Part shown: one piece after another, positions 19,170 through 60,140 of the stretch
Layout of the letters: every line of letters starts with the position of its first letter
Numbering within the stretch: position 1 is the first letter of the stretch
IMG/VR virus record: IMGVR_UViG_3300045988_162215
Length of the DNA stretch: 64,000 nucleotides
Origin: a virus
Strand: one strand, 5' to 3'
The notes under the pieces: model-generated
Told to the model about the DNA's origin: nothing
Seen by the model: the letters and a program-made list of their open reading frames with translations, nothing else
Databases searched by the model: none
Program-made: the position numbers and the translations under genes

Positions 19170-19494
19170 TTGCAATGTAACAAAAGAAGCAGTTAAAAAT
19201 ACAATAACAAGATTAACAAATCAGATTTATAAAGTTCTTCCATTGAAAGAAGAAAATAAAGATTGGAAAACTTCTTTAAATAATACAATCTTTGAATTAG
19301 TAGGTTTAGATAGTTTATTATCTGATTATTTTAGTTTTTTTAAAATTTTATGTAAATTAGAAAGTCTATTGTTCTTAGATAATGAGGATGATGAACAAGA
19401 ATTTTTTTATTTTAGAAAAACTATTTTTGAATGCTTGAGTTTAATGAATGAGGTGAAGCGATGTCTGGATTCGATAGAATGTCCACAAGAATAA
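19153..19494 (+). CDS. hypothetical head-tail joining protein
   Basis: SD ggagg; overlapping stop/start with neighbours. Confidence 0.4.
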   Translation: MVIKYNCNVTKEAVKNTITRLTNQIYKVLPLKEENKDWKTSLNNTIFELVGLDSLLSDYFSFFKILCKLESLLFLDNEDDEQEFFYFRKTIFECLSLMNEVKRCLDSIECPQE

Positions 19495-20381: not shown

Positions 20382-20990
20382 ATGAGAGCTGGAAAAATGA
20401 ATGGATACAATGGAGAAATAAAATCCACTTTTCTCTCTTGTGAAAAAGATACAGAAGCAATATTAAAAAAGTTATTTGTAGATAGCAAACCATATAGTGA
20501 TATGCTTAAAAGATTACTTATTATAAATACTAAAGATTGTCTTTTTGATATGACAAATCCTGAGTATAATAAGAGAATAAAAGAAAAAAGTATAGCTAAA
20601 ATGTATGATGAAGGATATATTAGATTAAATCCTAATCTTGAGATGGGCGAAAATGAGCAAGTAAAAAGCTATATCTTAATAACTTTTGATAATTTTGCTC
20701 CTTGTGAAAAAAATCCTCATTTTAGGGATTGTACTGTTATGATAGATATAATCTGTCATACTAAATACTGGGATGTGGGAAACTATAGGCAGCGACCGCT
20801 TAAGATTGCTGGCTATATTGATGGTATTTTAAATGAATGTAAGCTTTCGGGTTTGGGAACACTAAACTTTATGGGATGTAATGAAATTGTCATTTCAGAA
20901 GAATTATCTGGCTATTGTTTAACCTATGCCGCGGTTCATGGTTCTGATGATTTTATTCCAGAGGCGGGTGACCCTGATAATGGTAAATAA
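20382..20990 (+). CDS. hypothetical structural protein (202 aa)
   Basis: SD aaaggag + ATG. Confidence 0.4.
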   Translation: MRAGKMNGYNGEIKSTFLSCEKDTEAILKKLFVDSKPYSDMLKRLLIINTKDCLFDMTNPEYNKRIKEKSIAKMYDEGYIRLNPNLEMGENEQVKSYILITFDNFAPCEKNPHFRDCTVMIDIICHTKYWDVGNYRQRPLKIAGYIDGILNECKLSGLGTLNFMGCNEIVISEELSGYCLTYAAVHGSDDFIPEAGDPDNGK

Positions 20991-33608: not shown

Positions 33609-33616
33609 CAGAAATT

Positions 33617-39600: not shown

Positions 39601-40885
39601 TCAATTACTATCAACAAACACGGTTGTTGTAGATGGTGTTACAAGACCAGGATTAGTGTTAGATAGTAGAAAAGGCTATGTTGCTTTTATTAAAGAAGGT
39701 TTTGATAAAACAACAAAAGGCTTTTATATAGGTAATGAAGGTTTATCTTTGGGCGATTCATTCTGGGTTGATAGAACTGGACAGCTTTCTGCGACAAAAG
39801 GAAATATTGCTAATTGGACTATTGATAAAAATTCTTTATATGTAAAAACTTCTGCAACAGATGGTTCATTAGTTAAACTGTTTGATATTCATCCTACAAC
39901 GTCTGGTGGATATATTGCTTATAATACAACAGGTTGGAATACAGGTAGATTGTTAAATAATATTGAAGGATGCTTCTATTTAGGTACAAACGGAATTTCA
40001 CTTGGAGAAGGTCCTGCCGCACCTTTTAGAGTTAATAATAAAGGTTATTTGTGGTCTACCTCTGGAGTTATTGGTGGATGGACTATTAGCAACACAAGCC
40101 TTAAAGGTGGTAATGTTACACTCAACAGTGATGGTTCTCTTATAGGTTCTAAATGGCGTTTTAGTAAAGAAGGTGTTCTTACTTGTACTGATGCCGTTAT
40201 TGGTGGTGTTCATTTTAAGACTGGTTCGGGAGAAGCAAATTGGTCAGGTGGACAAATGACATCTGGAAAAATTGGTTCATGGAATATTGGTATTAATGCA
40301 ATAACATCTGATAATGGAAATGTTAATTTTGAAACAGATGGAGATTTTAAGATTGTAACAGATGGAAATCATGGAATTGAAGGCACTGGAACAAAAATTG
40401 ACATAAAAGGAATTATAGTATCAATTAATGATGGTGCTATTGGTGTAGATAAAAGTAAAGCTCATTTTGGATTAGAAGCTGGTTCTGGTTTAACTATCAG
40501 TCAAGGAAATATGAGTACAACTGGATTAAGTAATGGTATAAATCTAAATGCTGGTGGTGGAGATTGTTCTTTTGGAGGAGGAAGTAGCCTATCTTTAACT
40601 TCTACTGGAACAACAGAAGTAAAAGGAAATAAAGTAAAATTAACAGGAGAATTAGAATTACCTTCTACTATTAAAGTTGGAAATCAGACATTTGAAGAGT
40701 ATATTCAAAAAGCTATTGAAAAAGCATTAAATAATCCTTCAGCAGGAATTAAAGGCTCTTTAAACGCTATAATCAATAAATTATTATCTGGAAAACAGCT
40801 TTCTATTAGTACTACTTCTAGTAAGACTGGAAGCTCAGAAGGACATAGCCATTCATATACAAAAGTAACTGGTGTTCATTTTTAA
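33617..40885 (+). CDS. giant tail protein (2422 aa; distal tail / fibre-like with tandem beta-repeats)
   Basis: About 8 tandem repeats with motif G.I(G/A).W(T/N)I..N.L in the C-terminal third (IGGWEIGANTL, AHWTIGQNL, ANWTLDEYQL, ANWTIDKNSL, IGGWTISNTSL, IGSWNIGINAI) plus a central coiled coil; start codon uncertain. Confidence 0.6.
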   Translation: MRRGLDLSAIFGYNRIRMRFDFSYSNKEEKKEERVLATDYTKFQVDSTVKENFTKAASNTSLNRGADYISNSIYDAVASVSENAVSAVQSDVSYEMEVMEIVDQGTATYRVKYLENDKLQAHASTPSYSVGDHVLVLVPRGDFDNPLVILNSVTPSVTVVGEDKTTAETLKRIEVSQNLFNNYNLIKFASYQDETIDINDIVPYNLSDLLKGYFDSGYNILKLNMNVKTSIAKEQRISGSYGIKVEIPIRRKNADGILKDDIQEFYLDSKVFNGNPYELTNWSNQTNYLVLNFGDEIIFDKKRSIKVTAFVDGFPQDPAKTDKSVWADIILKDIQLTVCEDIETVEGGYKVVLTAENGPFFANQDVSSIEEKKINLKVFLNGLETSYAKMPIYWFIEDPTVNETSKYYHRSAGVNWRCLNSRTEVLGEAQNDSSFVFNTSAGSVTISNQDIKHKSKIRCYVGTNEGQLWVYGELTISNLYSLIKEVNLYADKENNTYIENIGSVTLTCEVNYPNLYSNVVRDEELNYVWEQIDQQGRIISQDDFYNIVALNDKNITDGIYTTKISFPVSSLTSDMNIFKVYVYANKKQASGSIIAYPIETKQISIRTKEGQDFLVVLDNANVNYNYDADGDAPDSDNYDGLSLQKLEIKPVEFSIISAATGEEISKAEYDRVSWVWKVPINSLLKPNLVYFESINQDNTSAITKDDNYYYIRGNGTNRNLQYKLASRYNAKSAQSLSSLTITFGSTVLYEDVPIRFSKDGENGTNGTKYTAFVTYKIGDTEYRYGDIYVDDNGNEHPVKMRFVAVEDNDGTIDWYIYDLVSNTLKKCYTLSGNSYSHIKGDLYRLNIKVYKDGEEINTSASSQTGQANVSWNIFDSGERQGLGWKENKYFCPFAISDSDSSSCYIIPTNSDKNKLSQWNNENNIPYVIVQANISLSNLKATADQSTDDLNNIYNNDLHIYYDYPIEITRIKKPQTDFASDGSFKSFVPSLEGGFYNVLYTSAGNNPQYDDTENFRCESNLIGVDSKECNYSWNANSNIFLDKNMTVHEISVSENNECPVAKPNPLFQSGDFYNYIKVKVDIENKILKNKLSKSTSEKEELQKALDKNNLIYDNLKLFLKACNLYQIEYSLKQSKEELQKRSECIDALQNIINAINSLDRDVSAQSNMSELILSNGVKIGSSKNADTFIYNELNIINNIIISVLNTKTSVYGIGYNGGNDIESISSLFEDVLSRISTLYGNGIRTIIRKDVNVLQSSIDAFNTFNQSIKNKTVTTNYSDFTAKLKNIVENENLVELAKQEEEYQKLLDTLNGYYVNITEYVSGNDVEKNYVDIWNSFVNFKQKLYSYGREIESDEILEQRNQLSQQYALDLSEIEANKENTIISSEPIISYQNRTLSGKKYSEAKDIVQKRYEELVAEDNDSCSREIAKIKTNKDLTDEQKNEQIIVIKQQYGLLKKEKTSEKDAVLKTLADDVENTKIKNINTITETYNTNLLKTYENSYLVPLEYLQEKYSTKTSELNTEIENKNKEIADLNTGIESSQESVVIIRPINMKCNSYEIPGLNNWDGKKYYLSNNGEYMFCPQIGAGVKTNNNTFTGMFMGARTSVNRSMVSETENDLNLRNKDIGLFGYSQGVQSIFLDAKTGSAFMGMPGQGQIVINPDQAFASIYSGNYYKYDSNRKGYYSKKDGSFISEIDFNNLKTQEERDNYSSGQGMLINLTDGAIKSSYWNVNSEGKSTFTSGIIGGWEIGANTLSSVIKNNAQLVLDSGNLVGLTDVNGSEGRSPKIYSSDNTRKPHDTLDSMEPGFYLSSDGLSIGNTFKVSNQPATGLRTQGTGILEVGNLSGAHWTIGQNLEGTSFIGYGASYLISKSFVNANNDNSANDSESVYLGTDGLSFGRNLELKSNGSLKVGHFTKNGLLSNFLVLEVDEGDSSNASLRFNTNSIHDFKNNSLYVGTQGIRLGKQSLKGNNRGVFEVENDGTLWATAGHVANWTLDEYQLLSTNTVVVDGVTRPGLVLDSRKGYVAFIKEGFDKTTKGFYIGNEGLSLGDSFWVDRTGQLSATKGNIANWTIDKNSLYVKTSATDGSLVKLFDIHPTTSGGYIAYNTTGWNTGRLLNNIEGCFYLGTNGISLGEGPAAPFRVNNKGYLWSTSGVIGGWTISNTSLKGGNVTLNSDGSLIGSKWRFSKEGVLTCTDAVIGGVHFKTGSGEANWSGGQMTSGKIGSWNIGINAITSDNGNVNFETDGDFKIVTDGNHGIEGTGTKIDIKGIIVSINDGAIGVDKSKAHFGLEAGSGLTISQGNMSTTGLSNGINLNAGGGDCSFGGGSSLSLTSTGTTEVKGNKVKLTGELELPSTIKVGNQTFEEYIQKAIEKALNNPSAGIKGSLNAIINKLLSGKQLSISTTSSKTGSSEGHSHSYTKVTGVHF

Positions 40886-41243: not shown

Positions 41244-41732
41244 ATGCTTAACCTATTATCTAGTTATTCAGCTACAACTATTGCCATTATTATTTTTATG
41301 GTGTTAGTTGCTCTCAAAGAGTTAATTGAATTACTTAAATATTTTTATAATATATTAAAGAAACATTTTGGAAAAGAAGAGGAAGAAAAAAAGAATGATG
41401 ATAAAATATTAGAACAATTAAATGAATTAAAAAAAGACTTTGATGAGCATAAAAAAGAACACCAAGAAATAAAAAGTGACATACAAGAGATAAAAGAGGA
41501 ATTAGTAGATAACAAAAACAGTATAAAAAGATTAGTGACATCAGACCGGAATGATATAAAAAGTTGGCTTGTAGAAAAACATCATTTTTTCATAAATCAA
41601 GGCTGGATAGATGACTTTTCAATGGATACTGTCAATAGAAGATTTAGTGATTATGTTGAGGAAGGCGGCAACTCATATGCAGAGAGTCTAGTGAGTGCGA
41701 TTAGAGATCTCCCTAACCAACCGCCGCAATAG
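41244..41732 (+). CDS. membrane-anchored coiled-coil protein (162 aa)
   Basis: SD aaggagg + ATG; N-terminal TM helix TIAIIIFMVLVAL then a K/E-rich helix. Confidence 0.5.
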   Translation: MLNLLSSYSATTIAIIIFMVLVALKELIELLKYFYNILKKHFGKEEEEKKNDDKILEQLNELKKDFDEHKKEHQEIKSDIQEIKEELVDNKNSIKRLVTSDRNDIKSWLVEKHHFFINQGWIDDFSMDTVNRRFSDYVEEGGNSYAESLVSAIRDLPNQPPQ

Positions 41733-45959: not shown

Positions 45960-47606
45960 ATGGAGGAAGTTTCACAGGTAAAACTAGAAGGCTCTCTTTA
46001 TAATGTTAGAGACGAGCAAGCTAGAAAAACAATGATAAGTCGAACAAACCCTGTTATTGAAGGCTCGCTTAGTGTCAATAGAAAAGAAGAAACTGCGGTT
46101 GGCAATAATAGTGTTACTTTGAATACTAATAATAGCGCGACCGGGGAAGGCGCTACAGCGACTGGATTTGAGACTAACGCGTCTGGAGATTATTCTTTTA
46201 CTCAGAATTTTCAAACTATAGCTTCAGGCAGTGGATCTCATGCAGAGGGATATAAATGTGAAGCTAGTGGAGATTATTCTCATGCAGAAGGATGGATTAC
46301 AAAGTCTAAAGAAGTAGCTTCACATAGTGAAGGATATTTAACCAATACAACTGGGCTTTATGCACACGCGGAAGGGTCATCAACAATAGCAAGTGGACAA
46401 AGTTCGCATACAGAAGGTAGCGGCGCGGTCGCCGCTGGTCACTACTCACATGCTGAGGGTATAGATACTAAAGTAGGCGAAACCGCAGCAAATGGTACAG
46501 TAAGTGGAGAAACAACAGGTAGCCAAGAGATAATCAAAAAAGATGAATTAAATCTTGCAATTCTTGGCGGACACGCGGAAGGTGTACAAACTAAAGTTCT
46601 TAGCTCAGGCTGCCATGCAGAGGGCGTTGAAACTCAGGCTGGTGGAGTCGTTGAAGTGGGCGATGCCGCGAAGCAACAATTAGGATGTCATGCAGAAGGT
46701 TATAGAACTATAGCTGGATATGATTATCAGACTGTTTGTGGTTTTTATAATGATAATAAAAATACAACAATTTTTGAAGTTGGTAATGGCGTTATGGAAC
46801 AAAGAAATAATGCCTTTGAAGTTTATAAGAATGGTGATGCTAAGATTCATGGTAATCTTTATATAGATGTCGGCAAAGGTGAATCTGGTCAAATGAATTT
46901 AAGAGATTTATTAAAAGATATTAAACAAAATAACTTTTATATCTCTTATCATAATAATGAAACATTTGATGCATTACATGAACCAATTATGGATACTTTA
47001 ACCGCGGATAGTGATTTATCAAACTTAACCGCAGGTGGATTTGATTTAGACAATTTAGTAGGAATAACTAGAGCAGATATTTATAAATTATTTGATGGAA
47101 AAGAAGATACTTCAATTTCTTTACCTGATTCTAATTTTAGTTTAATATTTAACTTTAATGAGGAAGTTCAAATAGATATGGTAAAATTTGTGGTGTCTAG
47201 TACGGGTAATGGTATTCCAGTTTTACAAACTTGGAATCCAGACCTTGGGATCTGGGTGGATGCCGCAGATGCTTTTATAAATACCTCTAAAGTTACGACT
47301 ATTGTTAAATATGTAAACCACATTCCTACATCTAAGTTTAGATTAACTTCACATTCTGATTCTGCTTTTAATTTATATGATTTACAAATTTATGGTACTT
47401 CAATTAAGGGTAGAGTTTATAAGAAGGTAGAAGATAGATTAAGTTCTTATGATTTAGATGTTCAATTTTATGATACAGAAGTTTCTGAATCTGATTATAA
47501 AGCTAATTTATCTTACTATAATACAGACAATGATGATAGTGCATATAATGCATTGGTTAGTTTATATAATACAACAATAAAGACCGAGGAAGGAGAAAGT
47601 AACTAA
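45960..47606 (+). CDS. tail fibre protein with SHAEG repeats
   Basis: Repeats SHAEGY / SHAEGW / AHAEGS / SHTEGS / GHAEGV / CHAEGV / CHAEGY and a C-terminal ...FEVGNG...NAFEVYKNGDAKIHGNLYIDVG segment typical of fibre repeat proteins. Confidence 0.55.
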   Translation: MEEVSQVKLEGSLYNVRDEQARKTMISRTNPVIEGSLSVNRKEETAVGNNSVTLNTNNSATGEGATATGFETNASGDYSFTQNFQTIASGSGSHAEGYKCEASGDYSHAEGWITKSKEVASHSEGYLTNTTGLYAHAEGSSTIASGQSSHTEGSGAVAAGHYSHAEGIDTKVGETAANGTVSGETTGSQEIIKKDELNLAILGGHAEGVQTKVLSSGCHAEGVETQAGGVVEVGDAAKQQLGCHAEGYRTIAGYDYQTVCGFYNDNKNTTIFEVGNGVMEQRNNAFEVYKNGDAKIHGNLYIDVGKGESGQMNLRDLLKDIKQNNFYISYHNNETFDALHEPIMDTLTADSDLSNLTAGGFDLDNLVGITRADIYKLFDGKEDTSISLPDSNFSLIFNFNEEVQIDMVKFVVSSTGNGIPVLQTWNPDLGIWVDAADAFINTSKVTTIVKYVNHIPTSKFRLTSHSDSAFNLYDLQIYGTSIKGRVYKKVEDRLSSYDLDVQFYDTEVSESDYKANLSYYNTDNDDSAYNALVSLYNTTIKTEEGESN

Positions 47607-48283
47607 TGTCTATTTTTAACAAAACTATAAGCTGTACAATAAATAATTTACCGAAAGAGTTTGAGACTCTTGTTACACAATGGGCAACAAATAAAAATGG
47701 TAATATGGCTTGTACAGTTAGTGAAACTACTTGTTCTTTGACTATTGATGAAGATGTATGTACTTTTTCTTTTCCAACTACTGGAAACTATAGTGGCTCA
47801 TATCAATGGAGCATTACAATTTGTGATGCTCCAGACTATGAGTGTTGTACTATTTTAAATAGAGAAAGTTTTAGTGGCATTGATGGTAACAATACAAGCA
47901 GTGCAGACCAAAGATATAATTTAATTATTTGTAAATACAATGGTGCTTTAAAATGCTTAAATTCTGTGTCTGTAGATGGTTTTAGTTTAAGTGATTTATT
48001 TAATATACCAAAAGGTAGATATAATATTTCTTCTATAAATGATGTTTATATTACAAGAGCATTAGTTAATTCTAATTTAGCATCAGCTAATATAATTAAT
48101 ATTTCAGATAATTTATATTTATCTACAAATTTAATAAATGTTGGTGTAAAAACAATAGTTAAAAGTAAAGAAGATACAAGTAAGCAATTTATAAATATTG
48201 GTGGAGTTTTTTATTTGCCATATTCTTCAAGTATTTTAACCATTAGTGCTAAAGAACCAAGTGCGGAATCTACAACTGAATAG
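47606..48283 (+). CDS. RBP-family paralog (short form, 225 aa)
   Basis: Shares the DNLYLSTNL...KQFINIGGVFYLPYS module with the three downstream genes. Confidence 0.5.
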   Translation: MSIFNKTISCTINNLPKEFETLVTQWATNKNGNMACTVSETTCSLTIDEDVCTFSFPTTGNYSGSYQWSITICDAPDYECCTILNRESFSGIDGNNTSSADQRYNLIICKYNGALKCLNSVSVDGFSLSDLFNIPKGRYNISSINDVYITRALVNSNLASANIINISDNLYLSTNLINVGVKTIVKSKEDTSKQFINIGGVFYLPYSSSILTISAKEPSAESTTE

Positions 48284-48313
48284 GGGCTTTTAAAATAAGC
48301 CCCATTTATTTTG
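48283..48313 (+). terminator. intrinsic terminator between the short and long RBP paralogs
   Basis: ggggcttttaaaataagccccatttatttt. Confidence 0.65.
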
Positions 48314-48332
48314 AGAAAAAGGAGGAGAAGAA

Positions 48333-49820
48333 TTGGCTTTATTTTATTTCACTATAGGAGTGTCAGATAATACATTTTCATTAAAAGAAAAACTAGAAAA
48401 AATTAGATATGAAGGAGCAAATATTTCATATACTATTATATCTTCATCACATGTAATTTTAAAAATAAATGAAATTGAATTAAATGTTCAATATGAACTA
48501 TCTAAATCTTCAATAGCACAATATTTTTGGTATTTATGTGATGCTTATAATCAAGAGAGTCTAATTATTTTATGTGATTCTCCAAATGTAAATGAGAATG
48601 GTAAAACAGGCACTTTTGGTCTTTCTACATATAATAGAGCATATTTTAGATATAAAGAAAAAATGATTGAAGTACCTTTAAAAGAAGATACTTTTTCAGA
48701 TAGATTTAATTTAATAAAAGGTAATTTTAATACTTTTGATGATGAAACTATAGGCAACAATCTTATTACAAGCAAATGTACTTTTAATAGTGGTAGTAAT
48801 ATTGATAATGGAGAAATTATTTCTATAGATAATTTATATGTTTCAGCTGGTTTACAAGATATAGATTTTAGAACTATTATAAAAGATTCTAAAGGAAATG
48901 CTTTTATAAATATTGGTGGAATTTTTTATGCTAATAATGTTGATTATATAGTTGCAGATAGTACATGTCCAAATTTGATTCTTGTACCAGATGGTAGAAT
49001 CAAATATGAATGGAATGCTAATACCGAAATTACAAATGATATTTGGTTAAATACTGAAAAAACAGCAAGTATTAAGCTTGGTACGAATTATAGATATGAG
49101 GTTAAAAATAACAGCTTTTTTATGAAACAAGCTGGCCATTCTACCTCTATAAAATTATCTTTGCCTGATGACGTAAATGGTTTTACTTTTTATTCTATTC
49201 TTAGATGTTATAATGTACATGGTGTAAATGATTATTCATATGAATTACCAGGTTTGGAAATAGGAAATAATGAGCAAGAGCGTTGTGTAATTGCTCCTCG
49301 GCATGGAGAAAGATATTCTTCAAGGAATATTCTTAATAACAATGATGACAAATTAGGTTTGTTTACTGCTGAAAAAACGAATATTAAAAACACTAGTTCT
49401 AACTATCCTCGTTTTATTTTTCCTTCTTATGATGAAATAAATCACTTTGTTAATGACCAATATTTTTATACTTTTGGTTTAGATATTTCAAATATTCCTT
49501 TATTACTTTATGTTTTTAGATGTTCAAAAAGTAAAAATTTATCTTACAATAATCCTCCAAGGTTTTCTGTTTTTGTTAAAGATAAAAAATTTTATGATAA
49601 TTTATTAACTCCTTATTCAATAAATGAACCAGAGAAATCTTCAATAATTGATTTAAAAAATATAAATATTGTCACAAGTAGTCAAACAATAGGAATACCA
49701 AAAACCTATGGAGAAATTAAATATATAGGTCTTCAACCAAGTGGAGATATAAGTGATGAAGAAATACTTGAAAATATGCAATATTTAACAAAAAAGTTTA
49801 AATTAGATAAGGAGGTATAA
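48333..49820 (+). CDS. RBP-like paralog 1 (495 aa)
   Basis: TTG start after SD aaggagg; conserved N-terminus, (Y/F)W(Y/F)LCD..(Y/N)(Q/E).(L/I)I.L(C/Y)(D/N)S, KCTFN.G.NI..GE...DNLYVS....FINIGGIFY, conserved C-terminal tail SDEEILENMQYLTKKF. Confidence 0.55.
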   Translation: MALFYFTIGVSDNTFSLKEKLEKIRYEGANISYTIISSSHVILKINEIELNVQYELSKSSIAQYFWYLCDAYNQESLIILCDSPNVNENGKTGTFGLSTYNRAYFRYKEKMIEVPLKEDTFSDRFNLIKGNFNTFDDETIGNNLITSKCTFNSGSNIDNGEIISIDNLYVSAGLQDIDFRTIIKDSKGNAFINIGGIFYANNVDYIVADSTCPNLILVPDGRIKYEWNANTEITNDIWLNTEKTASIKLGTNYRYEVKNNSFFMKQAGHSTSIKLSLPDDVNGFTFYSILRCYNVHGVNDYSYELPGLEIGNNEQERCVIAPRHGERYSSRNILNNNDDKLGLFTAEKTNIKNTSSNYPRFIFPSYDEINHFVNDQYFYTFGLDISNIPLLLYVFRCSKSKNLSYNNPPRFSVFVKDKKFYDNLLTPYSINEPEKSSIIDLKNINIVTSSQTIGIPKTYGEIKYIGLQPSGDISDEEILENMQYLTKKFKLDKEV

Positions 49821-49823
49821 TAG

Positions 49824-51170
49824 ATGGGCTTATATAAATTTAGTATCGCGGCAGCCGCGTCTCCTAGTGATATTGAAGCTAAGATTACTAGTGTCAGAGG
49901 ACAAGGTGCGAATATTTACTTACACAGCATTGTAGATATAGGTAACTTAAATTTATCAATAAATAATAAAAATGTTACAATAAATTATGATTTGATTGGA
50001 ACAAAACAAAATAGTTTATTTAATTGGTATATTTGTGATACAGTTGGATATGAAACTATTATTATTCTATATAACTCAGGAACTGAATCAGATAGCACAT
50101 TTGGTTTAGCTAACTATAACCGAATTTATTTCAATGTGAAGAACCAACTGGTGTCAAACCCAAAGATCTCAGCGACGCTAGCCGCGCAATTCAATGTTCT
50201 TAGAGGACGATTTGATTCATATGAATCAGATAGTGGCGATGATGATGTAATTATGTTAACTAAGTGTGTCTATAATAATGGATCTAATATCGAAACAGGA
50301 GAAGCTATTGTTACAGATAATCTTTATGTTTCAACTAATTTAAGGTCAACTTCATTTAAGACTATTGTTAAAGATGAAGATGGCAAGCAATTTATAAATG
50401 TTGGTGGAATTTTTTATTTACCTTATAGTGAAGAAATTATTTATCCTAGCTGGAGTCCAAATCAATTAGTCTTGCCAGCTGGAGCCGTAGACTATGAATG
50501 GAATCCCGCAACAGCAATTATAACAGAAAATGTTAGATGGTATGATAAAACCAATATCAATTACCTTACATACTATGTGAGTTCTGGTCCAGCTTTTTTC
50601 CCATATTATCAAAAAAATAAAGAAGATTTTTCTTTAGACATAAGAGGTGGTACGACCAGTTCTACTTATGGAATGACTCTTAAAGATAATGGCGATAAAA
50701 ATAGAGTTTATTATATTGTTGGAAAACCATTAAATAGCCCTAACACAAATACAGGATTTTTATATTGTTATGATACAAGTAGCGCCATTCATTGGCCTAA
50801 TACCTCCAATCCTGATGGTATTATGATGAGAAGAGAAGATCAAACAATAAAAATAAAATATAGAGATCGCAATGTTAGCCTTTTATACCAATATGTAGAT
50901 TATCCAGAAGAAAAATTGATTGTTTTTGCTATAAAAGCATCTCCACCATCTTTTTATGATAGCACCTATCTTTCTGAATTAAGTTGTTATTTTAATGGAA
51001 ATAAAAAAATAGAATGTTCTTTTCAAGATAATATTGTACTTAAACCAGAAAGAGGTATTTCTCTTGCATGGATGTCTTTAAAATTTTTTGCAATAGTAGA
51101 TCACGATCAGACATCTGAAGAAATAATTAAAACTTCTCAATTACTTATGGATAAATTTGATATACATTAA
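49824..51170 (+). CDS. RBP-like paralog 2 (448 aa)
   Basis: SD aaggagg + ATG; same conserved N-terminus and FINVGGIFYLPYS module; C-terminal tail TSEEIIKTSQLLMDKF. Confidence 0.55.
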   Translation: MGLYKFSIAAAASPSDIEAKITSVRGQGANIYLHSIVDIGNLNLSINNKNVTINYDLIGTKQNSLFNWYICDTVGYETIIILYNSGTESDSTFGLANYNRIYFNVKNQLVSNPKISATLAAQFNVLRGRFDSYESDSGDDDVIMLTKCVYNNGSNIETGEAIVTDNLYVSTNLRSTSFKTIVKDEDGKQFINVGGIFYLPYSEEIIYPSWSPNQLVLPAGAVDYEWNPATAIITENVRWYDKTNINYLTYYVSSGPAFFPYYQKNKEDFSLDIRGGTTSSTYGMTLKDNGDKNRVYYIVGKPLNSPNTNTGFLYCYDTSSAIHWPNTSNPDGIMMRREDQTIKIKYRDRNVSLLYQYVDYPEEKLIVFAIKASPPSFYDSTYLSELSCYFNGNKKIECSFQDNIVLKPERGISLAWMSLKFFAIVDHDQTSEEIIKTSQLLMDKFDIH

Positions 51171-51183
51171 AGGAGGTTAAAAT

Positions 51184-52776
51184 ATGGCTTTATTTCAATT
51201 TAGTACATCAATTAGTACAACAGTTTCAGAATTAGCTGATAAATTAACCTCTTGGCAAGATAGCGGGGCTAGTATATCAGAAATTGCAATTTCTAATATC
51301 AATGATATAAGCTTTTTAATAAATGATAAATATTGTAATGTTAAATATAACATGTCTTCTTCTCAAAATGCAAACTATTATTGGTTTTTATGTGATAGTG
51401 TTGGATATGAAACTTTAATTGTTTTATGTGATTCTCCTATTGTTAATGAAAATGGATATAAAGGAAGTCTTGGGAATGCATTGTATAATGCAATTTATTT
51501 TTTACATAATGGTAGATTAGTAAGAAATCCTCAAATTGATGAACCTATATGTAGTCAATTTAATATTCCTAATGGACCTGTTGTTGAAAGTTCTGATAGA
51601 GTTATATTTACCAAATGTACTTTTAATAATGGTGTTAATATAGAAGTAGGCTCAAATGAGATAACTGATAAGTTATATGTATCAACAAATTTAGTTTCTG
51701 CTGGTTTTTTAACTGAAATTACAGGATCGGGGCAAAAATTTATAAATATTGGTGGAATATTTTATTTACCTTATAATAATGTTGTTTTAAGTTTGAGTAA
51801 ATATAAAAAAAGAAGTATTTTAAAAAATGCTGAAATAGAATTATGGGCAGGATGTTATGAGGATAATGAAAAAATATATGATAGAAAAGAAGAAAATACT
51901 TTTTATAAAAATATTCGTAATAATATAAAAATAGTTCCAGATGGTAATATGGAAATGGGATATATTCAGTTACCAAGTGGAGATTCTTTATATTTAAAAA
52001 GTGATACACCTTTCTTTTTTAATAAAACTATTTATATGGTAGTTTATAATAAAAATTCTTTTATCCATAGTAATGTTGGTAGTAATAGAAGTGCTTATTC
52101 AAATAATATAATTGCTTGTGGAGAAGAAATCTATCATTCTACTTCTACTAGTAAGTATCCTCCTTATTTTCCTCGATGTTTTAGTTTAAATACAGTTGAT
52201 AAGCCTATCTTTGGAACGTCTCAATATTCAGGTCATGAAAAAAATGGATATTTATTATTGTCTTGGAAAAGTAAATCTTATGGTGCTTTAGGAACTCAAG
52301 TTGTTAGTAAATTAAATCAACATATATTAGATTATTATAATAATGAAAATAGAGAATATTATTATGATTATGGTAATAATATAATGTCAATGACTTGGCA
52401 AGTTATGAAGATGACTCCTAAAAAATATATATATGTTATAAAAACGCCTTTAAAAGAAGAGTACCCATATACTGCTTACATAAATAAAAATAAAATTAAT
52501 TCTTCTGAAAGTTTTTTCTTAAATAAAGATGAGGTAAATTCTTTTATTGGTAGTGGTTATTTATTAAAATCTTATTATTTAATGATAGGGGGTAATCAGT
52601 ATCATACTTTAAATACAAACAATCCTGGTTCTAATGACGACAGCGATAAACAAATAGATACTCCAGAATTAAAAATAGATTATTTTGGAATAGTAGAAGA
52701 ATCCCAGTCTGATGAAGAAATACAAAAAAATATTCAATATTTAGCTAAAAAATTTAATGTAGATCTAAATGATTAA
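51184..52776 (+). CDS. RBP-like paralog 3 (530 aa)
   Basis: SD aaggagg + ATG; same conserved modules; C-terminal tail SDEEIQKNIQYLAKKF; terminator 52776..52802 downstream. Confidence 0.55.
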   Translation: MALFQFSTSISTTVSELADKLTSWQDSGASISEIAISNINDISFLINDKYCNVKYNMSSSQNANYYWFLCDSVGYETLIVLCDSPIVNENGYKGSLGNALYNAIYFLHNGRLVRNPQIDEPICSQFNIPNGPVVESSDRVIFTKCTFNNGVNIEVGSNEITDKLYVSTNLVSAGFLTEITGSGQKFINIGGIFYLPYNNVVLSLSKYKKRSILKNAEIELWAGCYEDNEKIYDRKEENTFYKNIRNNIKIVPDGNMEMGYIQLPSGDSLYLKSDTPFFFNKTIYMVVYNKNSFIHSNVGSNRSAYSNNIIACGEEIYHSTSTSKYPPYFPRCFSLNTVDKPIFGTSQYSGHEKNGYLLLSWKSKSYGALGTQVVSKLNQHILDYYNNENREYYYDYGNNIMSMTWQVMKMTPKKYIYVIKTPLKEEYPYTAYINKNKINSSESFFLNKDEVNSFIGSGYLLKSYYLMIGGNQYHTLNTNNPGSNDDSDKQIDTPELKIDYFGIVEESQSDEEIQKNIQYLAKKFNVDLND

Positions 52777-52802
52777 AGCCCTCTCAGGAGGGCTCTTTTT
52801 TA
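52776..52802 (+). terminator. intrinsic terminator after RBP paralog 3
   Basis: aagccctctcaggagggctcttttttatt. Confidence 0.7.
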
Positions 52803-52973
52803 TTGTAACTAATTATTTTTTAATCTTACGTACTTTTTTTTCTTTATCTTCATAAAATAGCATCTCCTGCTAAATTTTAAATATTTCTCTTTGTCTCTGC
52901 TATCTCTCTAACAAAACTAGCTAATAGACATGCAGCTTTTTGGATATATTTATGACAGAAAGGAGGAAACTAA

Positions 52974-53360
52974 ATGTTTCAACCAAATGCATATTATTAT
53001 CCAAATCAGCCGCAACAGTCATACGCACCTAGACAGGTTCCATATGAGATGCCGCAACAGAATCTCTTGAAAGGAAGATTTGTTTCATCAATAGATGAAG
53101 TTAGAGCAGCTCAAGTTGATTTTGATGGAAGTATTTTTATTTTTCCAGATATGGCAAATAAAAAAATTTACACCAAACAAATCGACTTAAATGGTAATGT
53201 TAAATTAGAAGAATATGATTGGGTGCCTATTGAGAAAACCGCGGCAGTCGGTGATTTTGTCACTAAACAGGAATTTGAGGAAACTATGGCTAAAGTTAAA
53301 GAAGCTATTTCTCAAGCTGCACAGCCACAACCGCAAAGTAAAGAAGGGTTTAATTTTTAA
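52974..53360 (+). CDS. hypothetical Q/P-rich protein (128 aa)
   Basis: SD aaaggagg + ATG; N-terminal PNQPQQSYAPRQ low-complexity region. Confidence 0.45.
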   Translation: MFQPNAYYYPNQPQQSYAPRQVPYEMPQQNLLKGRFVSSIDEVRAAQVDFDGSIFIFPDMANKKIYTKQIDLNGNVKLEEYDWVPIEKTAAVGDFVTKQEFEETMAKVKEAISQAAQPQPQSKEGFNF

Positions 53361-53381
53361 ATAAGAAAGGAAGAAGAGAGA

Positions 53382-53633
53382 ATGCAAGGACAAGGTTTTA
53401 ATCCAATGCAAATTATTCAAGCAATTCAGAGTGGAGCAAATCCACAACAAATTACTATGAATATCCTCCAAGAAAAAATGGGACAGACCCCTATGGGACA
53501 AAATTTAATGCAATTAGCACAAATGGGAAATTCATCCCAGTTAATGCAGATTGCTAAGAATTTATCTAATCAAAAGGGTATCAATTTTGATAAAGAATTT
53601 ACCGCCTTTAAAAACAAAATAGGCGTTAAATAA
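53382..53633 (+). CDS. hypothetical Q/M-rich small protein (83 aa)
   Basis: SD aggaagaagagagaATG. Confidence 0.4.
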   Translation: MQGQGFNPMQIIQAIQSGANPQQITMNILQEKMGQTPMGQNLMQLAQMGNSSQLMQIAKNLSNQKGINFDKEFTAFKNKIGVK

Positions 53634-53659
53634 TATATATATTAAAGGAGGACATTCAT

Positions 53660-54448
53660 ATGTTCAATGGAAACACTAGTGGCTATTCATTAGCCGATAT
53701 CGCAGCCGCAACAGGCGGAAACGATAGAAACAATGGATGGGGAGAAGATTGTTGGTGGATCGTTCTTTTCATCTTAATTCTTGCCGGTGGAAATAACTGG
53801 GGTAATGGATTATTTGGTGGCAGAGATGCAACATCTTCTGGTATTACTGATGGTTATATCCTTACAACAGATTTTGCTAACATCGAAAGAAAGATTGATG
53901 GCGTAAACAATGGTATTTGTGATGGCTTTTATGCTATGAATACAGGTATGCTTAATGGTTTTAACTCATTAGGCAATGCTATTCAGGGTGCTCAGGCTGA
54001 TGTAACTGCTGCAATAAATGCAGATACAATAGCAAATATGCAGAATACAAATGCTATCACTAACCAACTTACTGGTATTGGTACACAGATCGCTCAATGC
54101 TGCTGCGACCAGAGATACGAGAGCGCAACTCAGTTTGCTAACTTAAACTATAATATTGCAGATCAGAGCTGTCAGACAAGACGTACTATTGCTGATTCTT
54201 CAAGAGATATTATAGCTAATCAAGACGCTAATACAAGAAGTATCTTAGACTTCTTAACACAAGACAAGATTGCTACTCTTACAGCTGAGAATCAGTCACT
54301 TAAATTTGCTGCTTCACAAGCTGCACAGAACACATATCTTGTAAATGCACTTAGCCCAGCTCCAGTTCCATCATATCAAGTTCCAAATCCTTATACAGGA
54401 ATGTATGGATATAGAGCATGCTGCAATACTTGCGGATGTACTGTATAG
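53660..54448 (+). CDS. Gly/Asn-rich membrane protein with C-terminal Cys clusters (262 aa)
   Basis: SD aaaggagg; TM helix WWIVLFILILAGG flanked by GGN/GNG repeats; Cys clusters QCCCDQRY, CQTRR, ACCNTCGCTV. Confidence 0.5.
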   Translation: MFNGNTSGYSLADIAAATGGNDRNNGWGEDCWWIVLFILILAGGNNWGNGLFGGRDATSSGITDGYILTTDFANIERKIDGVNNGICDGFYAMNTGMLNGFNSLGNAIQGAQADVTAAINADTIANMQNTNAITNQLTGIGTQIAQCCCDQRYESATQFANLNYNIADQSCQTRRTIADSSRDIIANQDANTRSILDFLTQDKIATLTAENQSLKFAASQAAQNTYLVNALSPAPVPSYQVPNPYTGMYGYRACCNTCGCTV

Positions 54449-54461
54449 GAGGTAAGTAACT

Positions 54462-54884
54462 ATGGAAATTACAGCTAATGCTGCTCAATCTGTTGCAGCA
54501 AGTCAAAATGTGGTATTCACGGATACTGCTGTTCCTGGTAACTGCTCCATTATTCACAGAGAAGGTTCCGGTTTAACTAAATTGCGCGGTCTCACAACTA
54601 CGCAGTGTAGAGCTAGATTCAAGGCTACATTCGGTGGTAATATAGCAGTCCCAACAGGTGGCACTGCAGGAGCAATTTCTGTTGCTTTAACTGTAGATGG
54701 CGAGCCTGTGGGTACAACAACTATGACAGTAACTCCAGCCGCAGTAAGTGAGTATTTTAATGTAGGAGCAAGTATTTATCTTGATGTGCCTGCTGGATGT
54801 TGCTCTACTATTGGAGTAACAAACATTTCTTCTCAGGCTATTTCTGTAATAAATGCTAATCTTATAGTAGAAAGAGTTGCTTAA
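54462..54884 (+). CDS. hypothetical secreted / beta-sandwich-like protein (140 aa, T/A/G/V-rich)
   Basis: SD ggagg + ATG. Confidence 0.45.
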   Translation: MEITANAAQSVAASQNVVFTDTAVPGNCSIIHREGSGLTKLRGLTTTQCRARFKATFGGNIAVPTGGTAGAISVALTVDGEPVGTTTMTVTPAAVSEYFNVGASIYLDVPAGCCSTIGVTNISSQAISVINANLIVERVA

Positions 54885-54892
54885 GGAGGGTT

Positions 54893-55447
54893 ATGAAAAT
54901 GGATAAATACAAGAGTATGAAAGATACCTTAGTTGCTCAAGTTCAAACTCAATTAGGCAACTTAGAGAATGTTGATGCAAAAGAGCTTGGAGAGGTTGTA
55001 GATATGATCAAAGACCTTGAAGAAGCAATGTACTATTGCTCTATAACAAAAGCAATGGATGAAAGTGAGCGTCAAAAGTCTAGACAGCATTACTATTCAG
55101 AACCATATTATGGCTATGAGGGAAGAATCTCTCCAGATTATAGAGATATGGATAGAGATAAGTGGAATAGAATGTATTATGGCGGACAGCCGGTGGATGG
55201 AAACCATATGTCTAGAGGAATGGAGTCTATGGGGCGTGACCGCCGCGAAGGCAGAAGTCCTATGAGCAGACGTTCATATATGGAATCTAAAGAAATGCAT
55301 CAAGATAAAAATTATCAATTAAAAGAATTAGAAAACTATATGAAAGAGTTATCTTCTGATATTACAGAAATGATTGCAGATGCTTCTCCTGAAGAAAAAC
55401 AATTACTTAAACAAAAAATGACTACTCTTATGAGTAAGATTGTTTAA
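54893..55447 (+). CDS. hypothetical R/D/Y/M-rich protein (184 aa)
   Basis: SD aaggaggg + ATG; central YYGYEGRISPDYRDMDRD...GRDRREGRSPMSRRSY low-complexity region. Confidence 0.45.
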   Translation: MKMDKYKSMKDTLVAQVQTQLGNLENVDAKELGEVVDMIKDLEEAMYYCSITKAMDESERQKSRQHYYSEPYYGYEGRISPDYRDMDRDKWNRMYYGGQPVDGNHMSRGMESMGRDRREGRSPMSRRSYMESKEMHQDKNYQLKELENYMKELSSDITEMIADASPEEKQLLKQKMTTLMSKIV

Positions 55448-55771
55448 TTGTTTACAATAAATGGAGAAACATGGTATATAGTATTTGTTCCTTCTAATTC
55501 TTTTGTTCTTTATAGAAGTGATGGTTCTCTTAGTATCGCCATGTGTGATGACGATACTAAGACAATATATATTAGTAATCAAATAAAAGGTAATTTTCTA
55601 AGAAAAGTCCTTTGCCATGAGATAACTCATGCGGCAATGTTCTCTTATAATGTTAACCTAACTGTAGACCAAGAAGAGCTATTAGCTGACCTTGTAGCTA
55701 CTTATGGCTACGAAATTATTTACATTACAAATGAGATATTTAGAAAATTAAAATGGGAGTCTTATTATTAA
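55448..55771 (+). CDS. mini HExxH zinc-metallopeptidase-like protein (107 aa)
   Basis: Motif CHEITHAAM in the translation; TTG start abutting the upstream stop (alternative ATG at MCDDD); bidirectional terminator 55754..55787 overlaps the 3' end. Confidence 0.45.
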   Translation: MFTINGETWYIVFVPSNSFVLYRSDGSLSIAMCDDDTKTIYISNQIKGNFLRKVLCHEITHAAMFSYNVNLTVDQEELLADLVATYGYEIIYITNEIFRKLKWESYY

Positions 55772-55787
55772 GACTCCCATATTTTTA
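55754..55787. terminator. bidirectional terminator at the convergence of the structural (+) and replication (-) modules
   Basis: gggagtcttattattaagactcccatattttt; T-runs on both strands. Confidence 0.7.
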
Positions 55788-55792
55788 TTATA

Positions 55793-56284
55793 TTAAAAAG
55801 CAGATTTTTTCTTATTCCCTAAACAATAGGCATGACCAATTCCTATTGCATCAGCTTCATCATCATTAACTGTTTTATTGTAATTCTCTTTTACAAAATC
55901 AATATCTAGTTGTTTTAAGACATTTCGCGTAATACCTCTACCTGTATGGATCCCGCACTTAGCCCGCCATTCTGAGCTTGTAAAAAATTCCATTGTTAAT
56001 TTATTATGTCTATATAGCATAATGGCGATACTACCTTGTGCGTATGTTAGTGCTTTATAAACAACCGTATTATGTCCGCAAGAAGCTGGTATTGGATCTT
56101 CTACAATAACTTTATTTATTGAATCTATATCTACTTTTTCTTCTAATTCTTTTGTTATTTTTTCTATTCTCTCTAAGACAGACGCGGACGTCGCTGTGAT
56201 ACAACCAGACTGGATTAGTTCTCCCTCATCGAAAACCGCGTATCCTGTAGACCTAGTAGAGATATCTAATGCTAAAACTTTCAT
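55793..56284 (-). CDS. ruvC: RuvC-like Holliday junction resolvase
   Basis: N-terminal MKVLALDISTRSTGYAVF (RuvC motif); SD aataggaggtatgtaaATG; own consensus promoter 56310..56338. Confidence 0.7.
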   Translation of the reverse strand: MKVLALDISTRSTGYAVFDEGELIQSGCITATSASVLERIEKITKELEEKVDIDSINKVIVEDPIPASCGHNTVVYKALTYAQGSIAIMLYRHNKLTMEFFTSSEWRAKCGIHTGRGITRNVLKQLDIDFVKENYNKTVNDDEADAIGIGHAYCLGNKKKSAF

Positions 56285-57983: not shown

Positions 57984-60140
57984 CTATAAATGAAGAACTC
58001 TATCATGGATCTCTTGGGTTCGACCTTTGTTCCAATAGTTGACCCCAATGTATCCACAGGTCCGCCTAGCAACGTTCATTTTGTTCGTGTCAGTATTTCC
58101 ACATTGCGGACATTTCCAATACAAATTATTTGTTTCTCCTTCAAGAGTAATTTCTCCACTAAAACCACATACTTGACAATAATCTGATTTTGTATTTATT
58201 TCTGCATACATAATATTTTCATAAATAAATTGAATTACAGAAATAATTGCTTCTATATTATGTTGCATATTTGGAACTTCAATATAGCTAATTGCGCCAC
58301 CCGGAGACAGCTTCTGAAATTCTGCTTCTTTTGCAAGTTTACTAAAAGCATCAATTTTTTCTCTTACATTGATATGATAACTATTTGTAATATAGTCATA
58401 GCCTTCACTTAAATCTTCCCATTCTTTGCCAAATCTTTCTTTTAGACATTTAGCAAATTTATAAGTTGTACTTTCCAATGGTGTTCCATAAACAGAATAA
58501 TCAATATCTTCTGCTTCTTTCCATTTAGAACAAGAGTCATTTAATTTCTGCATAACAGATAAAGCGAATTTTTTTCCTTCTTCTGTTGTATGCGAAAGTC
58601 CAGTCATATATTTCGTACACTCATACAATCCTGCATAACCAAGAGAAATTGTTGAATATCCATGATATAATAGCTCGTCTATTACATCATCTTTACCAAG
58701 TCTTGCAATAGCACCATTTTGCCAAAGAATAGGCGCTGTACTAGTTGGAGTTCCTAACAATCTATCATGGCGGCAACGCAATGCCTTATGACAAAGTTCA
58801 AGTCTTTCATTTAATATATTCCAAAAATCTTCAACATTTTTCTTTGAAGAAAGTGCAACATCAGCTAAATTAAGAGTAACTACACCTTGGTTAAACCGTC
58901 CATAGTATTTGGAACCCGCGATGTAATTCTTTGCGTTTGCATAGTTTCTATCTGTTCTGTCTACTGTGAGGAATGATCTGCAACCCATGCAAGGATATAC
59001 CGCTCCGTCTTTCATATCTCTTTGAACCTTATTTGAAATATAGTCTGGAACCATTCTTTTTGCAGTACATTTAGCAGCTAATTCAGTTAAATAATAATAT
59101 TTACTTCCTGGATAAACATTCATGTCATCAAGAGCATAAATCAATTTTGGAAAAGCCGGCGTAATATAAACGCCTTTTTCATTCTTTATTCCTAAAATTC
59201 TTTGATTTAATACTTCTTCAATTACCATTGCTAAATCTTCTCTGTCTTTACCTTCTTCAACTTCGGCAAGGTTCATATAGACAGTAATAAAAGGTGTTTG
59301 CCCATTTGTTGTCATTAAAGTTAAAATTTGATATTGAATTGTTTGCACACCAGCTTCAATATCTTTTCGAACCATTTTTTCAATAACTTCTTCTGATAAT
59401 TCTGGATAAATCCTTTTAAAAGTTTTTCTTGTTTCTTCAACAAAAGGAGATAAATGAGCTAATGAAATGCTCTGTCCGCCATATTGAGAACTAGCAACCT
59501 GAGCAACGATCTGAGTTGCTACATTCGCGGCAGTTGAGAATTTATGTGGCTTATCTATCGCGGTCTTGCTTATGATAGTACCATTCTGGAGCATGTCCTC
59601 TAAGTTTATAAGACAGCAGTTATAAATAGGCTGAATAAAATAGTCTTCATCATGGAAGTGAATTATCCCTTGTCTATGTGCTTCTACGATAGCCTTTGGG
59701 AGTAGTCTTCTCTCGGATATGTCCTTGGAAACGGCGCCCGCGATATAATCTCTTACTGTTGTTGATAATTGAGAATCTTTATTAGAATTCTCTGTTGTAT
59801 AATAAGAATTAGTGTTTTTAACAATTTCATCAATTATATCATCAACAGTATTTTTTCTTGCAGCAGTTCTATTCTCCCTATAAAGCAAATAAGATTTTGC
59901 GACATCTTTTCTTTTAGTTGACATTAAGCCTTTTTCAACTAAATCTTGGATCTCTTCTATTGTTAATGGATGATCTGCTTTTTCCGCGTAATCTGCAATA
60001 TAATCTGCTATATTACCACTTTTTATTAAAGCATAGTCAGTTACTTCTTTATCGACATCTTTAAAAGCATTTAATACAGCATCTACAATTTTCATATGGT
60101 CAAAATCTACTAATCGACCATCTCGTTTAATAATTTTCAA
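57984..60140 (-). CDS. nrdD: anaerobic ribonucleoside-triphosphate reductase (class III RNR)
   Basis: C-terminal glycine-radical motif RRTCGYIGV; zinc ribbon CQVCG...CPQCG; TTG start 7 nt after SD aggagg. Confidence 0.85.
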   Translation of the reverse strand: MKIIKRDGRLVDFDHMKIVDAVLNAFKDVDKEVTDYALIKSGNIADYIADYAEKADHPLTIEEIQDLVEKGLMSTKRKDVAKSYLLYRENRTAARKNTVDDIIDEIVKNTNSYYTTENSNKDSQLSTTVRDYIAGAVSKDISERRLLPKAIVEAHRQGIIHFHDEDYFIQPIYNCCLINLEDMLQNGTIISKTAIDKPHKFSTAANVATQIVAQVASSQYGGQSISLAHLSPFVEETRKTFKRIYPELSEEVIEKMVRKDIEAGVQTIQYQILTLMTTNGQTPFITVYMNLAEVEEGKDREDLAMVIEEVLNQRILGIKNEKGVYITPAFPKLIYALDDMNVYPGSKYYYLTELAAKCTAKRMVPDYISNKVQRDMKDGAVYPCMGCRSFLTVDRTDRNYANAKNYIAGSKYYGRFNQGVVTLNLADVALSSKKNVEDFWNILNERLELCHKALRCRHDRLLGTPTSTAPILWQNGAIARLGKDDVIDELLYHGYSTISLGYAGLYECTKYMTGLSHTTEEGKKFALSVMQKLNDSCSKWKEAEDIDYSVYGTPLESTTYKFAKCLKERFGKEWEDLSEGYDYITNSYHINVREKIDAFSKLAKEAEFQKLSPGGAISYIEVPNMQHNIEAIISVIQFIYENIMYAEINTKSDYCQVCGFSGEITLEGETNNLYWKCPQCGNTDTNKMNVARRTCGYIGVNYWNKGRTQEIHDRVLHL

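Follow-up and report, generated by a model that had tools for sequence, protein, structure and literature searches.

A colinear six-gene cassette of unrelated phages as a candidate accessory operon for a membrane-anchored stalk-plus-head complex

Six co-transcribable genes, designated p1 to p6 and flanked by two terminator-like hairpins, were found at positions 52974-55771 of the 64,000-nucleotide (nt) stretch of viral DNA analysed in this study (IMG/VR record IMGVR_UViG_3300045988_162215; the whole stretch is called the window below). The same genes recurred in the same order in many unrelated phages, and most of their products resembled nothing in the libraries searched. The comparisons showed an accessory, mobile module, and we interpret it as a self-contained operon of the moron type that passes horizontally between unrelated tailed viruses of gut anaerobes. 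We propose that its products form a membrane-anchored stalk-plus-head complex at the envelope of the infected cell. The complex is our best guess at function, and we regard the proposal as possible but short of probable.

All six genes lay on the plus strand in the order p1 (52974-53360; 128 amino acids, aa), p2 (53382-53633; 83 aa), p3 (53660-54448; 262 aa), p4 (54462-54884; 140 aa), p5 (54893-55447; 184 aa) and p6 (55448-55771; 107 aa), with gaps of 0-26 nt between neighbours. Ribosome-binding sites of the AGGAGG type stood ahead of each of p1-p5, and the TTG start of p6 came immediately after the p5 stop codon, which suggests translational coupling. Upstream, an intrinsic-terminator-like hairpin with a T run (52777-52804, plus strand) closed the tail-fibre operon; its stem (52777-52794) had 7 bp with 5 GC pairs and was followed by CTTTTTTATT. 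The AT-rich intergenic leader beyond it (52805-52973, plus strand) held a strong AGGAGG ribosome-binding site before p1 and may be the seat of a cassette promoter. Downstream, a bidirectional terminator-like hairpin (55753-55780), with a 12-bp stem and T runs on both strands, was common to the cassette and a convergent RuvC-like gene (55793-56284, minus strand). Eight terminator-like sites were found in the region against 2.1 expected from shuffles, and the two hairpins set the cassette apart from the upstream tail-fibre genes. Much of this layout had been anticipated by an earlier, sequence-only reading of the window: its six open reading frames (ORFs) were all present exactly as it gave them, the upstream terminator that it placed at 52776-52802 proved real, and its compositions and motifs, including the cysteine clusters of p3 and the HEITH of p6, were correct on recount. 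The cassette leaders of relatives aligned over a common ACAAA…TATA block. A cassette-specific promoter built on this block was dropped as a candidate, because its weight matrix missed other operon starts in the window and the window site ranked 13th, and a sigma-70 scan gave hits no more numerous than in shuffled sequence.

Colinear p1-p6 cassettes were found in more than 50 loci of unrelated phage backbones, which comprised phages of 90-200 kb, temperate phages of 25-60 kb and two cultured systems, Butyrivibrio phage Ceridwen and the prophage of Vescimonas fastidiosa MM35. The full gene order was kept in temperate Dulem virus 39 and in 20 IMG/VR loci found through p4, and Clostridium perfringens phage CPD1 carried p1-p3. 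Human gut contigs, including those of Hadza samples, held the cassette, and the cassette-carrying hosts that could be identified were Bacillota. Homologues of p3, p4 and p5, drawn from gut metagenomes, each formed thousands of clusters at 90% identity, none with a name or a Pfam domain.

The position of the module differed among these phages. It followed the fibre genes in the window, lay between tail genes and holin in locus L020, followed the endolysin in Ceridwen and in the Vescimonas prophage, and sat inside a head-gene island in L004 and L019, together with a putative DNA methyltransferase recognised by sequence motifs only; CPD1 and Dulem virus 39 were further instances of the same module at a different position. 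Identical p3 sequences adjoined different fibre gene sets. Presence was variable as well: among 80 loci picked through the neighbouring RuvC gene and not through the cassette, 45 carried the cassette, 5 had a lone p1 or p3 match and 30 had none within 7 kb. About 40% of the relatives in this lineage were without the cassette at this locus, and in two of them (L082 and L085) baseplate genes abutted RuvC directly. A comparable polymorphism was seen in cr116_1, whose holin, L,D-carboxypeptidase, 379-aa protein and major capsid protein corresponded to gp28, gp30, gp31 and gp32 of crAss001. Its p3 island was a 3.8-kb insertion between the gp30 and gp31 homologues; crAss001 has no island, and its virion has been modelled completely without such proteins (PMC10172136). 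Every inspected occurrence with long enough flanks lay among phage genes. Two short contigs of metagenome-assembled genomes held little besides the cassette, and locus L002, binned as Methanobrevibacter, is probably a mis-binned phage contig. The sequence-only reading had offered moron genes as one alternative, and the variable positions, the unrelated phages, the terminator flanks, the prophage-end site and the presence/absence polymorphism all spoke for it.

Several relatives read TAG as glutamine. In-frame TAGs in their p1-p6 aligned with glutamines of the window, and the six ORFs were intact in code 15. The TAG-recoding relatives of 90-200 kb were L009, L011-L017, L002 and L003, and six of these loci, analysed over their whole length (L009, L011, L012, L014-L016), had TAG on both strands, with 16-20 TAGs in long convergent ORFs taken as the PolIII alpha gene. 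Recoding as a marker of late expression was rejected, because TAG was equally dense in the convergent replication genes and recoding was genome-wide.

A second version of the cassette, found in L004-type phages, Ceridwen and Vescimonas, was without the HExxH gene and had a small putative helix-turn-helix gene and a conserved gene for a 125-137-aa protein upstream of p1. These upstream genes lay at 2290-3248 in L004, 13285-14187 in L038 and 22048-22861 in L030 (Ceridwen), and the small gene was helix-turn-helix- or sigma-region-4-like. The 125-137-aa protein was considered as a C39-type cysteine peptidase from its GDC…GHVV motifs, a candidate dropped when Pfam gave no support. Homing-endonuclease-like genes were seen between p3 and p4 in L004 (4804-5850) and between p4 and p5 in L030 (24928-25722), the HNH call in both coming from our own reading of the sequence, and an annotated I-HmuI-type DNA endonuclease gene lay directly upstream of p3 in L032 (4883-5503; Bacteroides phage C3_41T2LP).

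Beyond the cassette, p3 occurred alone in crAss-like phages, in Bacteroides phage C3_41T2LP and in viruses assigned to Methanomassiliicoccales. Its neighbours in the crAss-like, Bacteroides and archaeal-virus genomes were of analogous composition, with a beta-rich Cys protein, a small R/D/E/Y-rich protein and HExxH peptidases. Homology of the crAss-like neighbours to p4, p1 and p6 could not be demonstrated, as hhalign comparisons were not significant; sharing beyond the phages of Bacillota is therefore established for p3 alone.

The most widely distributed component, p3, had homologues in more than 7800 clusters at 90% identity, and its profile covered 2566 clusters at 50% identity, the best 150 of which were stand-alone proteins of 126-333 aa. 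It matched phrog_16490 (E 1e-30). The N-terminus carried the conserved motif GYSLADIAAATG, and a hydrophobic stretch, WWIVLFILILAG, began at residue 32, with a Gly/Asn/Trp-flanked helix at residues 32-43. A double-glycine leader was considered for this N-terminus and dropped, as the GG was not conserved. A long amphipathic helix occupied about residues 70-231 (~160 residues; ~24 nm fully extended), with a hydrophobic periodicity of 3.65 residues that was exceeded in 0 of 500 shuffles. The protein had 10 Cys, with the clusters QCCCDQRY at residue 146, CQTRR at 171 and ACCNTCGCTV at 253; the CCC motif was almost invariant, and the C-terminal tail was rich in Pro, Tyr and Cys.

Searched against PDB sequences, the p3 profile found nothing significant, and influenza haemagglutinin HA2 appeared at E about 0.1. 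Residues 70-107 of p3 aligned with HA2 67-104; in addition, the hydrophobic segment of p3 is rich in Gly, Trp and Phe and contains GLFGG, and one end of the protein is rich in Cys. However, its hydrophobic segment is N-terminal and not a C-terminal anchor, and it has no receptor-binding subunit. We treated the match as a resemblance between coiled coils, and this likeness is probably why crAss-like homologues of p3 bear the labels "spike protein" or "glycoprotein."

Those labels, and the names "outer capsid protein/viral fiber" and "spike" that p3 bears in public records of crAss-like phages, point to a virion-associated module, an alternative that we consider unlikely. Here p3 would be a fibre or ejection protein that inserts its hydrophobic Gly/Trp-rich segment into the cytoplasmic membrane of the recipient, p4 a knob on capsid or tail, p1, p2 and p5 chaperones or internal proteins, and p6 a maturation protease. 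Virion cargo can hold a transmembrane helix, as crAss001 gp45 does; a segment with no Lys/Arg flanks would suit a protein kept soluble until use, the conserved cysteines could form disulfides after release, and among targets only the cytoplasmic membrane is shared by the bacterial and archaeal hosts. The cassette also runs in the direction of the structural genes and lies between head genes in L004-type phages, but its position is often outside the structural modules, after lysis genes, at a prophage end or among replication genes. Close relatives that still must build virions are without it, and it stays constant while adjoining fibre genes are swapped. The "spike" and "fiber" labels, for their part, go back to the non-significant coiled-coil similarity to HA2.

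The sequence-only reading had looked for lysis genes at this site and suggested that the cassette might replace a holin-endolysin pair. We scanned 36 ORFs of the window with Pfam, including every plus-strand ORF of at least 100 aa in 16220-55771 except four (16915-17940, 18609-19169, 19153-19494 and 20382-20990), and no holin or peptidoglycan hydrolase family was found among them. The earlier statement that the window has no recognisable endolysin therefore held for these 36 ORFs, in a window that makes up about half of the genome; IMG/VR contigs with a 100% identical p4 put the genome at ~122-140 kb. The description of unusual genes without canonical lysis domains was likewise borne out by family scans: p1-p6 held no peptidoglycan hydrolase domain (Pfam, NCBIfam, PHROGs), and p3, at 262 aa and with a single hydrophobic helix, matched no holin family in the same three libraries. 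In relatives, canonical lysis genes stood beside the cassette. L020 had Phage_holin_4_1 (5e-30) and Amidase_2 (1e-19) directly downstream, followed by an integrase; Ceridwen had a Glucosaminidase/PG_binding_1 endolysin about 640 bp upstream; the Vescimonas prophage had an annotated holin and amidase upstream, with host genes downstream; and CPD1 had an annotated amidase and holin about 3 kb upstream. The presence of canonical holin and endolysin genes beside the cassette indicated that it is no substitute lysis system and gave the proposed replacement no support. The expectation of lysis genes at this locus also failed, since in cassette-less relatives the baseplate genes abut the convergent RuvC.

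A non-canonical lysis system or a control of lysis is a different matter, and we judge it quite unlikely. In such a system p3 would be a large single-pass membrane disruptor of holin-like or spanin-like kind, while its soluble partners would leave the cell through lesions made by the holin or serve as regulators of the antiholin type. Known proteins of comparable build are lambda i-spanin Rz and T4 holin T, lysis proteins that cross the membrane once and have a large domain, either helical or Cys-containing. In p3, as in these two, a short N-terminus precedes a single hydrophobic helix, taken as a transmembrane segment, which is followed by a long helical domain with conserved Cys and by an end rich in Pro; p3 is also often near lysis genes. 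It differs from both in having no sequence similarity to them, no lipoprotein partner and none of the usual positive flanks, in its mostly Gram-positive or archaeal hosts, and in its coexistence with ordinary holins. No lipobox lipoprotein that could be a spanin partner was visible in p1, p2, p4, p5 or p6, and the cassette-carrying hosts that were identified are Bacillota; most hosts are Gram-positive, without an outer membrane to fuse. The cassette lay 0-3 kb from lysis genes in L020, Ceridwen, Vescimonas, CPD1 and cr116_1, and p3 of the archaeal virus vir215 lay between tail genes and integrase, the usual site of lysis genes; the vicinity of lysis genes, however, is a classic insertion site of morons too. 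The lack of holin and endolysin among the scanned window ORFs would favour lysis by p3 and its partners, whereas the coexistence with canonical lysis genes leaves no substitute needed, the cassette lacks a hydrolase domain, and the equivalent locus of cassette-less relatives shows no lysis genes.

The most conserved component, p4, was confidently modelled as a stand-alone C1q/TNF-like jelly roll of compact, ten-stranded topology. Its 140 aa are A/T/V/G-rich with 4 Cys, of which Cys28 and Cys113-Cys114 are conserved. It had no Pfam or NCBIfam match, so that it belongs to no curated C1q/BclA family, and its profile found no PDB sequence. The 120 best homologues were stand-alone proteins of about 140 aa, and BFVD held stand-alone viral homologues of 130-145 aa. 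The C1q-like knobs of the cyanophage A-1(L) and A4 tail fibres, TM4 gp23 and PRD1 P5 are C-terminal domains of long, host-variable fibres; p4, in contrast, stands alone, is the most conserved gene of its cassette and remains unchanged while adjoining fibre genes are exchanged.

In structure, p4 was closest to the exosporium proteins BclA, F-BclA and ExsFA. Sequence identity to the BclA C-terminal domain, F-BclA and ExsFA/BxpB was only 10-18%, and unlike the BclA-type proteins p4 has no N-terminal exosporium-targeting region, no collagen-like or coiled-coil stalk in its chain, and a phage origin that includes phages of non-sporulating hosts. The fold of p4 alone resembles the coat and exosporium proteins that the compositions had brought to mind in the sequence-only reading: Pfam and NCBIfam gave no hit to coat, exosporium or sporulation families in the six proteins or in 49 relatives and neighbours. 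A moron of the spore-coat or exosporium type that alters host sporulation or the spore surface, which the same reading had entertained, was already disfavoured and is in our judgement very improbable. The Cys-rich and Q/P/Y-rich compositions do resemble those of coat and exosporium proteins, the proteins lack signal peptides, as do the coat proteins that the mother cell makes, and many hosts are Clostridia. But Butyrivibrio fibrisolvens and Vescimonas, the hosts of one phage and one prophage with the cassette, are not known to form spores, and p3 occurs in Bacteroides phages and Methanomassiliicoccales viruses. The cassette is not sporulation-specific.

For p6, the sequence predicts a minimal minigluzincin-like metallopeptidase. 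The HEITH motif at residue 57 is part of an HExxH…EE pattern, and H57, E58, H61, E76 and E77 were invariant across 7 divergent homologues, with a Glu in the position of the third ligand of gluzincins. The best PDB match was the minigluzincin MJ1213 (4qhf), a weak one at E 0.02, followed by WLM (1.5) and IrrE (2.2). The minigluzincins (projannalysin MJ1213 and proabylysin) are like p6 in length (about 107-110 aa) and in having HExxH with a conserved Glu 15-16 positions downstream, although the match of p6 to them is weak; SprT/WLM and ImmA/IrrE peptidases are more distant relatives. Pfam gave weak matches to DUF6782 (19.2 bits against a cut-off of 27), SprT-like (17.4 against 25.6) and Peptidase_M78, all below gathering scores, and phrog_1233 was matched at E 2e-14. 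No cell-wall-binding or known lysin family matched p6.

The remaining proteins were of low complexity in part. The build of p1 is a Q/P/Y-rich low-complexity N-terminus (7 Q, 6 P and 5 Y in residues 1-30), a small domain that is probably beta-rich, and a C-terminal helix; it matched phrog_21718, of unknown function, at E 7e-5. Rich in Q (18%), N (11%) and M (10%), p2 was kept beside p1 in most loci and had no family match in Pfam, NCBIfam or PHROGs. The E/M/K/S/D/Y/R-rich p5 is helical towards both termini and, between them, of low complexity and rich in R/D/Y/M/S; this centre holds the conserved linear motifs YRDMD…MYY and RSYMESKEM; its homologues formed more than 3200 clusters at 90% identity, none of them named, and it had no family in Pfam, PHROGs, NCBIfam or PADLOC. 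For p1, p2 and p5 together, no match was obtained in Pfam, NCBIfam, PADLOC or the PDB sequence set, nor did Pfam assign any of the three to a family in a scan of 49 proteins from cassettes and their surroundings. No signal peptide or lipobox was visible in p1, p2, p4, p5 or p6 when the sequences were read directly.

A defence, abortive-infection or superinfection-exclusion system of a new type, with p3 as membrane sensor or blocker and p6 as protease effector or activator, appears rather improbable to us. Its sites, at a prophage end or beside lysis or integrase genes, are typical of phage defence islands, yet every occurrence that could be judged by its flanks lay among phage genes. A small helix-turn-helix gene lay directly upstream in several versions, called from the sequence and without Pfam support in L004, L019, L020, L025 and Vescimonas, and the upstream gene of cr116_1 was annotated as excisionase/terminase small subunit. 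The p3 of L004 gave weak coiled-coil matches to the ZorA tail (E 0.006-0.013), but at 14-16 bits these were far below the family cut-offs of 250-750. The window phage carries the anti-Thoeris protein Tad4 and so takes part in defence conflicts; PADLOC, however, gave no match at E <= 1 for any of p1-p6, and low-complexity composition and a C1q fold are unlike known defence proteins. The cassette matches no known defence system.

To return to the stalk-plus-head complex, p3 would use its Trp-flanked helix to enter the cytoplasmic membrane of the cell, whether infected or lysogenic, and would oligomerise into a stalk about 24 nm long. Trimers of p4 would dock on the Pro/Tyr/Cys-rich C-terminal tail of p3, giving a stalk plus head split between two proteins, an analogue of the BclA fibre. 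Low-complexity p1, p2 and p5 could serve as assembly partners or holdases, and the processing of one component would fall to p6 or, where the cassette is of the second version, perhaps to another small protein encoded upstream. The assembled complex would act on the cell envelope, excluding competing phages or modulating the timing or completeness of lysis, and would not itself degrade the cell wall. A broader form of the idea, which we hold to be possible though doubtful, is that the p3-centred cassette is an unrecognised, host-independent membrane-acting system of gut viruses, in which a fusion-protein-like, Cys-knotted stalk works with a C1q-like partner and a mini-protease. Its sharing across viruses of Bacillota, Bacteroidota and methanogens would then follow from the cytoplasmic membrane being common to all of them, and the system might serve in egress, in entry or in keeping rivals out.

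Several points weigh against the stalk-plus-head proposal. No experiment or homology ties any component to a function. The secondary structure of p3 comes from an AlphaFold2 (AF2) model of low confidence (predicted local distance difference test, pLDDT, 58), and its hydrophobic helix has almost no flanking Lys or Arg, which is atypical of a stable membrane anchor; such a segment would also fit fusion-peptide-like or virion-borne membrane insertion. No p3-p4 fusion was present among the 150 best p3 representatives, and the contact between the two proteins is pure inference. As to accessory status, the 30 cassette-less loci picked through RuvC may carry the cassette elsewhere in the genome. Three independent insertions of HNH-type homing endonucleases have taken place within the cassette or next to it. 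The genes marked by such elements are usually important in lytic co-infection, and the repetition here suggests that the cassette counts in lytic growth rather than being a moron that the phage could do without. Lastly, because TAG recoding is genome-wide, it carries no information on expression timing.

The window itself codes for a sigma factor, large terminase, portal, baseplate and fibre genes, with RuvC, dUTPase, NrdD and the PolIII alpha subunit on the opposite strand. Two giant ORFs stood back to back at 24993-40885 (plus strand): a tape measure protein of 2871 aa (PhageMin_Tail), which would imply a very long tail, and a 2422-aa ORF without a Pfam family match. Between these and the cassette, a 162-aa protein (41244-41732, plus strand) had an N-terminal hydrophobic helix, a coiled coil and a weak Hemerythrin match (E 4e-7); its counterpart in relatives (L085, 11542-11994) was kept just upstream of baseplate genes, and it could be a holin-like or tail-assembly protein. 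Four consecutive fibre-like genes preceded the cassette (47606-52776, plus strand). The last three (495, 448 and 530 aa) resembled paralogues, with a common N-terminal "MALF.F…" and C-terminal "DEEI…KKF," and a "FINIGG(I/V)FY" motif was found in all four, including the first (225 aa). In the early region, on the minus strand, the Tad4 family type I Thoeris inhibitor (PF25186, E 9e-37) was encoded by a 123-aa ORF at 7716-8087, and a Thg1 tRNA-His guanylyltransferase domain (E 1e-29), an unusual phage cargo, by a 294-aa ORF at 6795-7679; no tRNA genes were found in the window. The nrdD gene was intact in the window (57984-60140) and split in relatives by LAGLIDADG or HNH_3 endonuclease genes (L026, 14026-17530; L035, 14472-17428).

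Phage accessory islands, the fold of p4 and the motif of p6 are of known kinds. What the libraries and literature searched do not describe is their combination, the families of p3, p1, p2 and p5, and the whole system: for four of the six proteins, Pfam, NCBIfam, the PDB sequence set and PADLOC contained no relative, and nothing on this operon was found in the searchable literature. The module has been kept intact across phage backbones, across a change of genetic code and, for p3, across host domains. A multi-gene system so abundant, so conserved and so anonymous represents a gap in the understanding of gut phage biology. If the cassette does control exclusion, lysis or membrane passage, it would bear on how gut phages compete and persist, and the C1q/TNF fold would gain a further use. 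With Ceridwen and the Vescimonas fastidiosa MM35 prophage, two cultured systems are at hand in which the question can be tested directly.

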